From positions 29,636,001-29,700,000 of the forward strand of contig CM022673.1 in assembly GCA_012295275.1 (NCBI GenBank): DNA of 64,000 bases. The letters are read 5' to 3'. Shown piece after piece: positions 25,310 through 35,988 of the stretch. Under the pieces are notes generated by a model, which ran no database searches, had not been told where the DNA came from, and worked only from the letters and a program-made list of their open reading frames with translations. This DNA comes from Chrysomallon squamiferum. Its lineage: Eukaryota > Animalia > Mollusca. Numbering within the stretch: the first letter of the stretch is position 1; each line of letters begins with the position of its first letter. The position numbers were made by a program, and so were the translations under genes.

Positions 25310-25407
25310 ATGAAAAATCTGAGTTCCGTGGAGAGGCTCACTCTGATTATTGGCTTGGTTTTGCTGGCAATGTCGTGTCTGGTACAAACGAAAAACGTTA
25401 ACTGTTC
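25310..25407 (+). CDS. elevenin: Elevenin (L11-family) neuropeptide precursor, copy A, first coding exon (signal peptide + start of mature peptide)
   Basis: Acceptor ttttcag (25301-25307), ATG at 25310, reads MKNLSSVERLTLIIGLVLLAMSCLVQT-KNVNC-(TC), phase-2 donor gtaagt at 25408. Hydrophobic signal-peptide core LTLIIGLVLLAM. Confidence 0.9.
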
Positions 25408-27376
25408 GTAAGTATCAATTTTTAAAATGAGAAGATTTTAGTTAAATAAATATACTGTATTTACTCGCGTGTATGGCACATCTTGAGCATTGAATTAAAA
25501 ACAAATTCGTACAAAATTAATGAAATATTCATCCTCGGAAAATAGCTTTTATATCAAGCACTGAAATTGCTCCCCTGTCCAAAAATCAAACATGTTTCAG
25601 ATAATTTTACATAAAAACAGCTAAAAAATACCAAGCTTACAAAAATACAATAAAAAGTCAAGCTTAAGAGAAAAAGCTGAATGGCGCCCATGGAACGTGT
25701 CATACTTTCATACTAAAGTACGCCACTGTGTAATACACAGAATGTGTATTGGCTGCACGTTCAGTGAAACAAGACGTCTGTAAGAAAGTGCGTGTAAAAG
25801 ATGAGTTTTAGTTAATCAATACGAACAGAAGTAATGATAATAATAATAATAACAACAATGAATGAATGAATGAATGATGAAATAGTAGTAGTAAATTTAA
25901 ATTAAAAATAATAAAATAAAATTATAAATTAAGTAAATAATACAAATCTGTTTGACATTTCCCTCCCCAACAAAGAAAAATACCATTAAAAATATCTTTT
26001 ACATTATGACTTGTACCAACCAAAGTATTCTTCTTTTGTAAATATATATATATATATATATCTGAAAGCTTGTTTACCTTTTTATTAGTTATGTAACGAT
26101 GACAATATATAATATATATATATACATACATACATCGATTTATAAATTCATACGCACACACATATGTATGTATGTATTTTTGTATGTGTGTGTGCGTGTA
26201 CGTGTATATATATATATATATATATATATATATAGTCATCGTTACATCGTTAATAAAAATGTAAACAAAATTTCAGATATATATGAGTGTGTGTTTGTGT
26301 GTGTGTGTGTGTGTGTGTGTGTGTGTGTGTGTGTGTGTGTGTATATATATAAAATTATGTAATTTTATATTATCTCAGAATATTTTAATTTGTCTTATAA
26401 TGTGTATCATGTTTTCTAAAACAAGATACTAATATACTGTATATCAACATTATAATAATAGTCATCTGGTGTTGAAATAACCATGCACTGTCTAAATAGG
26501 TAATGTATTAACCTCCGCTGACATTTACTTATTACGAAGTTACTAATCGTGAGTTTGAGAGAAAACATCAACAGGTGATTATGTAAAACACGTAAGCCAA
26601 AAACATTTGCTAATCAATTGTACCTCTGACCTCCGACTGAACTCTCACAAGTTATCACACACTGAAATGTTTGGATAGTTAACACAGCATCTACTGACAT
26701 AAAATTTTATATTTTATTCAACTGGAAGAAGTAGAACTTGCCGAGCACAAAGACCAAACATTCTTCTCGTATCGGAAATCGTTTCATAATTTGTAGCGTG
26801 GACAGTGTTATTTGTGTTTAATGTCGCTTTTATTTGTCTAAAATTCTGTTTATTACGATGCTGCACGCGCATATGGATTGTAGTCAGTGACTGGTTTAGA
26901 AGACTAAAAACAGTGATATTTATAATTACACGTCCAAACATAATGTCTACACCACGCGCAAGAAACAAGTCAAAACACAGAGATCGTAAGATCGATCCTC
27001 TTTGGTAGATGGTTCTATGAGTTACTAAAGAGAACGCTCCCAAAACCGGTCGTGGTTTTTCTATGGGTGAGGTTGTATATAAAACATTTCTGGTCCTGGA
27101 CGATAAGAGAAAAAGGTTGGATGGCGAAAATGGATTTCCTATCAGTTTTGTACAAAAAAATCAAAATGTTGAGATGTCAGTAAAAAGGCCCAACAAAAAT
27201 AAAAATGAAAATAAATAAATAAATAAATAATATAATGACAACCCATTCATTCCCTTCGTACATACTTCAGTAACGTCATCAAAGATGTAGCATGTCAGTA
27301 TAGTTGTCTGTTTCATATATGCTTCAGTTAAAGACACAGCATGTCAGTATAGTTGTCTATTATTTATGCATTTCAG

Positions 27377-27451
27377 GGCTTATCCATACGCACCCAAATG
27401 TCTCGGTATTGCAGTGAAAAGAGGCGACCCATCACTTTTAGACACCAGACT
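27377..27451 (+). CDS. elevenin: Elevenin precursor, copy A, second coding exon (rest of mature peptide, KR cleavage site, pro-region start)
   Basis: Acceptor tttcag, phase-compatible with the previous exon: (S)AYPYAPKCLGIAV-KR-GDPSLLDTR(L), donor gtaagt at 27452. The spliced peptide has C-x8-C followed by xG-aliphatic and KR, matching the elevenin pattern (cf. Aplysia L11 RPRIDCTRFVFAPACRGVSA). Confidence 0.9.
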
Positions 27452-28272
27452 GTAAGTATTGTCTTAACTTCTGATTTGCTTTGAAATTTGTGTTGTTATT
27501 ATTACTGTTGTTGTCGCTAAGGTTATAGTTTTTCTAATGATTAAACATGACAAAATTAAGTCATGTCTCGACGGGGGCTGATATTTTTCTTTACTCTTGA
27601 CATCTGTATAAAAAAAAAATTCTGATGAAATACGGATACTCATATTTTGTAATAATTTACACTTTATCAGATTTGTTTTTTATTTCTGATATATAAATAA
27701 TTTTTTAATTAAAGAGAAAATGCCAGCTTTTGCCATTTTTTAATTTTATTTTTATAATTAATTATTAGCAAAGATCAATCGCCATAAATAAAGCAAATAC
27801 TTTGAAGGTTATAAAATATTATTTTTAGATGCTGAATCGTACTACAGCATGTACACTTTAAATCAGTTTATTGCTTTCTGAAAATCAGCTTCTTTTTTTT
27901 CCCTTTTTTTTTCTTTAAAGTTGAGTCTTGAACGAGTTAATTTAGTTTAGCAGTTATTTTGTTAGTTACTCCCAGAAGATTGTCAACTCTTCTCATTGCA
28001 TCAGTTCAGCTATTTCCCGTCCACACCTCATCATCAAAACCTTCTTTTGTGAACGTGTTGCTTACACACTTTAGACGAACAACAGATAAGACATTACAAT
28101 GAAAACCACATCTACTTTGTAAAAAATATATAGGAAACGTAATTATCTTTGTACATTCGCTACATCTTTTAAACAGTAAGAGAAGTATAATATTTGTGGT
28201 ATATGATTTATTTTCACAGGTTTTATATATTTACACATATACACAAAACAACACACATGCACATACATACAT

Positions 28273-33846: not shown

Positions 33847-33944
33847 ATGAAAAATCTGAGTTCCGTGGAGAGGCTCACTCTGATTATTGGCTTGGTTTTG
33901 CTGGCAATGTCGTGTCTGGTACAAACGAGAAAAATTAACTGTTC
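33847..33944 (+). CDS. elevenin: Elevenin precursor, copy B, first coding exon
   Basis: Acceptor ttttcag, ATG at 33847, MKNLSSVERLTLIIGLVLLAMSCLVQT-RKINC-(TC), donor gtaagt at 33945. Confidence 0.92.
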
Positions 33945-35913
33945 GTAAGTATCAATTTTTAAAATGAGAAGATTTTAGTTAAATAAATATACTGTATTTA
34001 CTCGCGTGTATGGCACATCTTGAGCATTGAATTAAAAACAAATTCGTACAAAATTAATGAAATATTCATCCTCGGAAAATAGCTTTTATATCAAGCACTG
34101 AAATTGCTCCCCTGTCCAAAAATCAAACATGTTTCAGATAATTTTACATAAAAACAGCTAAAAAATACCAAGCTTACAAAAATACAATAAAAAGTCAAGC
34201 TTAAGAGAAAAAGCTGAATGGCGCCCATGGAACGTGTCATACTTTCATACTAAAGTACGCCACTGTGTAATACACAGAATGTGTATTGGCTGCACGTTCA
34301 GTGAAACAAGACGTCTGTAAGAAAGTGCGTGTAAAAGATGAGTTTTAGTTAATCAATACGAACAGCAGTAATGATAATAATAATAATAACAACAATGAAT
34401 GAATGAATGAATGATGAAATAGTAGTAGTAAATTTAAATTAAAAATAATAAAATAAAATTATAAATTAAGTAAATAATACAAATCTGTTTGACATTTCCC
34501 TCCCCAACAAAGAAAAATACCATTAAAAATATCTTTTACATTATGACTTGTACCAACCAAAGTATTCTTCTTTTGTAAATATATATATATATATATATCT
34601 GAAAGCTTGTTTACCTTTTTATTAGTTATGTAACGATGACAATATATAATATATATATATACATACATACATCGATTTATAAATTCATACGCACACACAT
34701 ATGTATGTATGTATTTTTGTATGTGTGTGTGCGTGTACGTGTATATATATATATATATATATATATATAGTCATCGTTACATCGTTAATAAAAATGTAAA
34801 CAAAATTTCAGATATATATGAGTGTGTGTGTTTGTGTGTGTGTGTGTGTGTGTGTGTGTGTGTGTGTGTGTGTGTGTATATATATATAAATTATGTAATT
34901 TTATATTATCTCAGAATATTTTAATTTGTCTTATAATGTGTATCATGTTTTCTAAAACAAGATACTAATATACTGTATATCAACATTATAATAATAGTCA
35001 TCTGGTGTTGAAATAACCATGCACTGTCTAAATAGGTAATGTATTAACCTCCGCTGACATTTACTTTTACGAAGTTACTAATCGTGAGTTTGAGAGAAAA
35101 CATCAACAGGTGATTATGTAAAACACGTAAGCCAAAAACATTTGCTAATCAATTGTACCTCTGACCTCCGACTGAACTCTCACAAGTTATCACACACTGA
35201 AATGTTTGGATAGTTAACACAGCATCTACTGACATAAAATTTTATATTTTATTCAACTGGAAGAAGTAGAACTTGCCGAGCACAAAGACCAAACATTCTT
35301 CTCGTATCGGAAATCGTTTCATAATTTGTAGCGTGGACAGTGTTATTTGTGTTTAATGTCGCTTTTATTTGTCTAAAATTCTGTTTATTACGATGCTGCA
35401 CGCGCATATGGATTGTAGTCAGTGACTGGTTTAGAAGACTAAAAACAGTGATATTTATAATTACACGTCCAAACATAATGTCTACACCACGCGCAAGAAA
35501 CAAGTCAAAACACAGAGATCGTAAGATCGATCCTCTTTGGTAGATGGTTCTATGAGTTACTAAAGAGAACGCTCCCAAAAACCGGTCGTGGTTTTCTCTA
35601 TGGGTGAGGTTGTATATAAAACATTTCTGGTCCTGGACGATAAGAGAAAAAGGTTGGATGGCGAAAATGGATTTCCTATCAGTTTTGTACAAAAAAATCA
35701 AAATGTTGAGATGTCAGTAAAAAGACCCAACAAAAATAAAAATGAAAATAAATAAATAAATAAATAATATAATGACAACCCATTCATTCCCTTCGTACAT
35801 ACTTCAGTAACGTCATCAAAGATGTAGCATGTCAGTATAGTTGTCTGTTTCATATATGCTTCAGTTAAAGACACAGCATGTCAGTATAGTTGTCTGTTAT
35901 TTATGCATTTCAG

Positions 35914-35988
35914 GGTTTATGTATACGCACCCAGATGTCGCGGTGTGACAGCGAAAAGAGGCGACCCATCACTTTTAGACACCAGACT
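35914..35988 (+). CDS. elevenin: Elevenin precursor, copy B, second coding exon
   Basis: Acceptor tttcag; (S)VYVYAPRCRGVTA-KR-GDPSLLDTR(L); donor gtaagt at 35989. Mature peptide RKINCSVYVYAPRCRGVTA has the canonical elevenin C-x8-C-RGV-x-A motif. Confidence 0.92.

Follow-up and report, generated by a model that had tools for sequence, protein, structure and literature searches.

An elevenin gene of Chrysomallon squamiferum with within-species hypervariability confined to the mature peptide

Results

Divergence between two versions of the mature peptide

A stretch of 64,000 nt of the Chrysomallon squamiferum genome (assembly GCA_012295275.1, contig CM022673.1, positions 29,636,001 to 29,700,000; hereafter the window, whose first letter is position 1 and in which all exons and repeat units lie on the forward strand) carries one four-exon gene for the neuropeptide elevenin, the 5′ half of which (exons 1 and 2) is present twice in the assembly. 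The upstream repeat unit (unit A) encodes the 19-residue mature peptide KNVNCSAYPYAPKCLGIAV and the downstream one (unit B) the 19-residue RKINCSVYVYAPRCRGVTA, each split over exons 1 and 2. Divergence between the units reaches 21% in the peptide tract against 0.47% elsewhere, about 45 times the local neutral density, and further replacement variants of the same tract were found in read sets of the same organism.

Twelve of the 57 peptide nucleotides differ between A and B and change 10 of the 19 codons, all of them non-synonymously, with the only synonymous step lying within ATT>GTG. The 27 signal codons and the 12 that follow the peptide (KR and GDPSLLDTRL) are free of changes, and both Cys codons are kept. 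On recounting, these figures and the positions of the tract agreed with those of the initial annotation of the window, including its at most one synonymous step and its identical signal, Cys codons, KR site and GDPSLLDTR. In a MAFFT alignment, the 1969-nt intron between the two exons differs by 5 substitutions and 5 indel runs, as had been estimated by eye (about ten differences), and is hence not as divergent as the peptide.

Over the whole alignment of the units, 50 substitutions were counted in 8211 columns, of which 12 fall in the 57 columns of the peptide and 38 in the 8154 remaining ones (0.466%), and in the sliding-window comparison that the initial annotation had proposed, the peptide cluster stands out (Poisson probability of at least 12 substitutions, 2e-16). 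Replacement changes are likewise in excess when set against the non-coding background (Fisher, 1e-17). Nei-Gojobori counting gave pN = 0.265 (11.5/43.3 sites) and pS = 0.037 (0.5/13.7 sites) for the mature region, a contrast that is marginal inside the tract itself (Fisher p = 0.05). The next densest 57-nt window, with 7 differences, falls at 20933–20989 in a CT microsatellite where the alignment slips, and the next maximum is 3; in a 250-nt profile, 0–4 substitutions per bin were seen outside the peptide and this microsatellite. The units also differ by 40 indel runs, about half of them single-base. The variable tract is contiguous in the mRNA (codons 28–46), being split in the genome by the 1969-nt intron.

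Gene model and elevenin identity

A HMMER search with exon 1 matched one protein among 1.84 billion representatives (E 2.4e-6), a 115-aa precursor (P0001) named by NCBI as elevenin-Vc1-like of Gigantopelta aegis, in which a signal is followed by RKIDCSRFVFAPRCRGVAA, KR and a 67-residue tail. Word-based homologue searches with the 58-aa product of exons 1 and 2 gave no protein match, and the exon-2 translations of both copies match no family in Pfam.

Using the G. aegis precursor as tblastn query on the window, exons 1 and 2 were matched twice, exons 3 and 4 once. Coding exon 1 (25310–25407, A type, E 8e-11; 33847–33944, B type, E 5e-12) measures 98 nt from its ATG (25310 and 33847, respectively) and encodes the 27-residue signal peptide, the first five peptide residues (KNVNC in A, RKINC in B) and two-thirds of the sixth codon, i.e., 2 nt of a Ser codon; its variable part is 25391–25407 in A and 33928–33944 in B. 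After the 1969-nt intron (GTAAGT...CAG), the 75-nt coding exon 2 encodes the remaining 13 peptide residues, KR and GDPSLLDTR. The A type of this exon (27377–27451, E 0.004) has its variable part at 27377–27416 and the KR codons at 27417–27422, with a GTAAGT donor after GDPSLLDTR; the B type (VYVYAPRCRGVTA followed by KR and GDPSLLDTR) lies at 35914–35988 (E 2e-5).

Coding exon 3 (ATDQDD...NTQPL) was placed downstream of unit B at 39071–39185, with an AG acceptor and a GTTAGT donor; residues 59–93 of the G. aegis precursor match 39066–39170 (E 1.7e-6), their sole match in the window. An ab initio search for this exon had given implausible candidates only, and it was located afterwards by homology. 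For coding exon 4 (NADEFWDSLLRRRSADHQ and the TGA stop, 45888–45944), residues 101–115 match only 45894–45938, at E 0.6 with strand and order in agreement, and the spliced model includes it. The borders of both exons were set from the AG/GT splice sites around the tblastn matches, which makes the last intron (39186–45887) 6.7 kb long. The resulting spliced model of 345 nt codes for 114 aa, colinear with the 115-aa relative. Because the product runs on colinearly with this relative, the in-frame TAA after Leu58 is to be read as part of the GTAAGT donor and not as a stop, and an end of the coding sequence at this point was rejected. In both units a polypyrimidine tract and CAG (ttttcag in unit A) abut the ATG of coding exon 1 (25296–25309 and 33833–33846). 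An acceptor in this position suggests an upstream non-coding 5′ exon, the location of which relative to the repeated unit would affect how a real duplicate is expressed.

The identity as elevenin, already put forward in the initial annotation, is supported by the homology with the G. aegis precursor, by the colinear 114-aa model and by the Cys-x8-Cys, Pro, R-G-V and KR features. An N-terminal signal with a hydrophobic core, its cleavage site judged by eye rather than by a prediction tool, stands directly before the peptide and a dibasic KR directly after it, and the arrangement aligns residue for residue with that of G. aegis. Both precursors have a 19-residue peptide immediately after the signal, the Cys-x8-Cys spacing, a C-R-G-V-x-A end, KR and an acidic/basic C-terminal propeptide, and the identities amount to 20/27 in the signal, 14/19 in the B peptide and 28/69 in the part following the peptide. 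Elevenins are described as having two Cys 8 residues apart, Pro two residues before the second Cys and R-G-V after it, and the conserved positions in the Aplysia peptide are given as P13, R16, G17 and V18 (PMC10175484). Cys32 and Cys41 of the present gene (Cys-x8-Cys) are kept in A, in B and in every variant found in reads. The four Aplysia positions read P, R, G and V in B and P, L, G and I in A, which thus departs at R16; in a third type of exon 2, described below, they read P, R, G and I. The Lottia and Charonia peptides in Supplementary Table 1 of PMC10175484 are likewise similar to B.

Peptide variants in independent read sets

The stretch is covered by seven DNA runs of this organism, which come from three studies, and Logan contigs of four of them (X1, X3, X5 and X7) were compared with the assembly over positions 32600–37100, the bins at 36828–37100 (the junction at the end of the unit) being without contig cover. 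Such contigs show the presence of a sequence, not its absence, and the second exon-1 type of each run was likely dropped.

In all four runs exon 2 appears as a 117-nt bubble (35866–35982) with two branches, one B and one non-B, and the two peptide types of the assembly are both recovered from reads. The B branch is exact in X1 and X3 and carries one extra intronic change in X7; for X5 the B-branch record is not listed and there is no further variant row. The non-B branch has 10 differences: X3 and X7 have exactly the assembled A type here, X1 and X5 a third exon-2 type, reading S-IYPFAPKCRGIAV. Exon 1 is represented by one contig per run, with RKI (the B type) in X1, KFV (AAA TTC GTT) in X3 and X7, and KHV (AAA CAC GTT) in X5. 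The five genomes (the assembly and the four runs) therefore hold at least four exon-1 states (RKI, KNV, KFV and KHV) and three exon-2 types, the variable codon states being K/N/F/H at codon 29, V/A/I at 34, Y/F at 37 and R/L at 42. All the extra changes that the read sets add to the tract are non-synonymous. At least four distinct mature peptides occur in the five genomes, with the phase between exon 1 and exon 2 in the read sets assumed and not seen.

Outside the peptide, the contigs of each run differ from unit B at 7–13 positions per ~3.0–3.4 kb (0.22–0.43% per run). The pattern claimed from the two assembled copies, with variation confined to the mature peptide and a fixed signal, Cys frame, KR site and flanks, holds and extends to the population.

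The depths of the B and the other exon-2 branch were 11.4/10.3 in X1 and 23.8/22.6 in X3 (near 1:1), 115.5/237.6 in X5 (~1:2) and 75.4/109.8 in X7 (2:3), ratios that are weak evidence, since neighbouring contigs within one run differ in depth by up to ~40%. In X1 and X3 the exon-2 branches have about half the depth of the flanks within the unit, as both alleles and a duplication predict. A 343-nt segment of the intron (35258–35600; 26723–27064 in unit A) is contained in both units and missing from part of the haplotypes in 4/4 runs, in two deletion forms that are one letter apart at the junction (one of them with a C there); X1 and X5 show three forms. At 33216 and 33560 (24682 and 25023 in unit A) both units have T and G, respectively, and the four runs have A and T at full depth; the assembled letters are either private to the assembled animal and contained in both units, or assembly errors.

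Two haplotypes of one locus or a partial duplication

Unit A (20011–28272; blastn and MAFFT) forms the last 8262 nt of a contig that ends at a scaffold gap of 200 N (28273–28472), the only N run found by scanning the window, and unit B (28473–36885) forms the first ~8.4 kb of the next contig. In the blastn self-match (20011–28257 against 28473–36815, 97.8% identity over 8368 columns), unit A matches to within 15 nt of the gap and unit B from the first base of its contig. The first contig ends within a (CATA)n array (28248–28272), without 3′ exons of its own for unit A, and 5′ of 20011 it is unique sequence, this boundary showing no repeat feature. The second contig reads through the corresponding low-complexity (CATA/ACAC)n array (36788–37051). 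The window contains two elevenin-like units only. Its initial annotation had described two elevenin copies, without exons 3 and 4 and without the gap between the units; the two diverged peptide versions proved real, and two genes are not established, given the gap and the single-copy exons 3 and 4. With these exons present once, the units could represent two alleles, and any duplication would be partial, of exons 1 and 2 at most.

We favour, at about even confidence, the reading that the units are two haplotypes of one locus, falsely duplicated across the gap, so that the copies are alleles. Overlapping ends of two contigs, assembled from the animal's two haplotypes, would have been scaffolded in tandem with 200 N between them. 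Among the hallmarks listed for heterotype false duplication are a gap separating the duplicates within a scaffold, half read depth and one-copy k-mers relative to unique flanks (PMC9516828), and the present case shares with such duplications (Ko et al. 2022) the gapped pair, duplicates ending at contig ends and a divergence of allelic level. The reading is suggested by the N run being the only gap and the units ending at contig ends, by exons 3 and 4 lying once, downstream of unit B, and by the divergence of A and B outside the peptide (0.47%) being about that of the runs from unit B (0.22–0.43%). It is also suggested by a mosaic of flank markers, since the states that separate A from B at a 13-nt indel at 36003 and at 36191, 36245, 33411 and 35066 recur in mixed combinations among the runs. 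The T and G shared by both units at 33216 and 33560 are simple if each is a homozygous site, and two loci would need conversion to share them. Exactly two exon-2 types per run, finally, are what a heterozygote would show.

Several observations weigh against two alleles of one locus. B together with one non-B exon 2 was found in 4/4 runs and in the assembly, and if the runs are single diploids and one locus in Hardy-Weinberg proportions is assumed, four B/non-B heterozygotes out of four have a probability of at most 1/16. X1 and X5 each contain three haplotypes of the 343-nt indel, which a single diploid locus would give only in a pooled sample. The ~1:2 ratio in X5 is not what a simple heterozygote would give, nor what two fixed loci would. 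B is moreover invariant in all five genomes and ancestral-like, and the non-B forms are derived and variable, an asymmetry that is classic for a conserved gene with a fast duplicate. If the runs are single diploids, the reads favour a real duplication of exons 1 and 2, perhaps variable in copy number; if any run is pooled, the counts of haplotypes in reads say little.

A real partial tandem duplication is accordingly the strongest competitor, and we give it somewhat less than even credence. A cassette of exons 1 and 2, at least 8.4 kb long, would stand twice upstream of shared exons 3 and 4, the downstream B cassette keeping the ancestral elevenin under purifying selection and the upstream A cassette evolving fast and being polymorphic; gene conversion would keep introns and flanks alike, and selection would bar it from the 57 peptide nucleotides. 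The A peptide would then derive from a transcript in which exon 2A is spliced to exon 3, or from a frameshifted one with exon 2A spliced to exon 1B, which could still give the peptide because signal, A peptide and KR are all encoded before the junction. The acceptor directly before each ATG would allow an upstream 5′ exon to choose either cassette. In favour of such a duplication are the constant pair of B and one non-B type, near 1:1 in X1 and X3, the three intron haplotypes of X1 and X5, whose depths in X1 (~7.3, 6.5 and 11.4) sum to the flank depth of ~25 as four chromosomal copies would, the invariant B coding sequence and the derived state of A at eight of the ten residues at which the peptides differ. 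The inner boundaries of the repeat, on the other hand, are the two contig ends at the only gap, and a long-read assembly should not break exactly at the junction of an 8.4-kb repeat whose units are told apart by 50 substitutions and 40 indel runs. Unit A has no exons 3 and 4, the flanks diverge at the ordinary level between individuals, and their markers are mosaic among the runs. Homozygosity for the exon-2 type would also be required of a hypervariable A locus in 4/4 runs, and the ~1:2 and 2:3 ratios of X5 and X7 depart from the 1:1 that two fixed loci would give.

The dense tract could also have arisen without selection, by one short conversion from a spliced template (a cDNA, a retrocopy or an intronless diverged elevenin paralogue), which we regard as very unlikely. 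The tract is indeed contiguous in the mRNA, with an intervening intron of 1969 nt that has 5 substitutions only, and the marginal contrast of pN and pS (0.265 against 0.037, Fisher p = 0.05) leaves room for it. Other genomes, however, carry further replacement variants in the same tract, which argues for ongoing diversification and not for one event, and the remainder of the 64-kb window contains no donor-like sequence; templating of the variant tracts from nearby was rejected as well, there being no second match in the window.

That one of the two peptides is a consensus or polishing artefact is refuted: contig ends are often of lower quality and single-base runs make up about half of the 40 that separate the units, but short-read-derived contigs from three studies show both exon-2 types in 4/4 runs, with the A branch exact in X3 and X7, a related third branch in X1 and X5 and the B branch exact in X1 and X3, and several of the A/B indel states recur in the runs.

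Discussion

Probable selection on the mature peptide

Selection on the secreted peptide is the best-supported mechanism, and a likely one. We infer it because the tract diverges by 21% against 0.47%, while the intron that separates its halves is no more divergent than other DNA. Among alleles, balancing or diversifying selection would keep the 57 peptide nucleotides multi-allelic, and in a large, outbred population the divergence linked to them in intron and flanks would be lost through recombination; alternatively, positive selection may have acted on one cassette after duplication. In either case sequence not under such selection would be kept alike by recombination or gene conversion. An alternative raised in the initial annotation, namely that conversion or recombination has kept the flanks alike and is barred by selection from the peptide, is viable and forms part of both the haplotype and the partial-duplication readings. 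Relaxed constraint was rejected as an explanation, since it would give the neutral density of changes and not an excess.

Concerning the direction of change, B matches the G. aegis peptide in 14/19 residues and A in 7/19. Eight of the ten A/B differences are derived in A, one in B (T45) and one is unclear, and, as judged from this comparison of sequences, B is ancestral-like and A derived. The changes on the A side include V36P and the replacement of the Arg after the second Cys (R42L). In Aplysia, Ala in place of this Arg raised the EC50 (half-maximal effective concentration) by a factor that ranged, according to the receptor, between 5 and more than 1000 (PMC10175484), and A-type alleles, with V36P and R42L, would be expected to have an altered receptor pharmacology. 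Some states of the A series (Y-P-[YF] and C-L-G) occur also in published scallop and oyster elevenins, and are hence compatible with an active peptide.

Comparison with other systems and possible role

Neuropeptide hormones are textbook cases of purifying selection. The peptide described here is instead the sole variable part of its precursor, with replacement-only changes about 45 times denser than in neighbouring neutral DNA, which is surprising for a hormone. If selection is the cause, the peptide is likely read by a changing partner, such as a co-evolving set of receptors, conspecifics or another organism. In the elevenin families compared in PMC10175484, good conservation within the precursor is limited to the peptide, whereas in C. 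squamiferum it is the only part that varies within one species.

A constant signal, constant cleavage sites and a fixed Cys frame around a mature peptide with replacement changes are reported for toxins and immune peptides (PMC4558851, PMC7106915), and the conotoxin-like signature noted in the initial annotation, i.e., a conserved signal and a hypervariable mature region changed by replacements, is seen here as well. The present case differs from those multigene effector families in being a conserved hormone gene with one disulfide and in its extreme contrast (21% against 0.47%). The pattern of a constant pre-pro part with a variable mature peptide is thus known from toxins and immune peptides, and we found no report of it for a hormone gene: searches of the open-access literature and bioRxiv gave none in which elevenin or another conserved neuropeptide hormone is hypervariable within a species, and no open-access paper contained the A or B peptide strings.

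Elevenin-Vc1 and the other conoidean "doppelganger" elevenins of venom are comparable as elevenin-type peptides with a use outside ordinary neuroendocrine signalling, which the present one may have. In Conus, local duplication of neuropeptide genes accompanies their recruitment (PMC9963005, PMC13311285, PMC13542836), and the mechanism of elevenin recruitment is listed as unknown in PMC13542836. Unlike the doppelganger venom peptides, the C. squamiferum gene shows no multigene family, with two exon-2 types per run and two units in 64 kb. A use as venom, as had been suggested in the initial annotation next to one as pheromone or recognition peptide, accordingly finds no support beyond the sequence pattern. 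A role as external or conspecific signal is conceivable by analogy, elevenin acting as an environmental signal in Caenorhabditis elegans (PMC13542836, PMC13311285).

More tentatively, a conserved hormone may here have turned into a variable signal within the species. Every genome would carry the ancestral B form together with a hypervariable A series, in which 8 of the 19 residues are derived and one codon has four amino-acid states; the series would be encoded by a duplicated cassette sharing the 3′ exons. Should this be so, a canonical hormone and a hypervariable look-alike would coexist without any venom system. With alleles in place of cassettes, the locus would have a balanced polymorphism like that of a recognition locus, B being always heterozygous. 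If the assembled pair is a false duplication, what would otherwise be an account of the neofunctionalisation of a paralogue becomes one of balanced polymorphism.

Other features of the window

Besides the elevenin gene, the 64-kb window yielded nothing recognisable, and no Rfam family matched it. Among 57 open reading frames of at least 80 aa (picked from 109), none scored above the Pfam cut-off, with one low-complexity match exactly at it, and exact-pattern scans of metagenome contigs returned 0 matches. A Cys/Val-rich open frame (VCVSVF...) at 48761–48951 derives from a tandem repeat and gives a chance Cys-x8-Cys match unrelated to elevenin. Upstream of the gene, each unit has a 56-nt minisatellite of ~15 copies (22961–23812 and 31538–32345), in which the units differ by indels of 32 and 14 nt, and a perfect (GA)n microsatellite, with 63 copies in unit A (21319–21444) and 59 in unit B (29813–29930). 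An array with a period of 8 nt occurs on either side of the gene (18662–19055 and 42717–43190), and the two, 80–87% alike, are members of a single repeat family.

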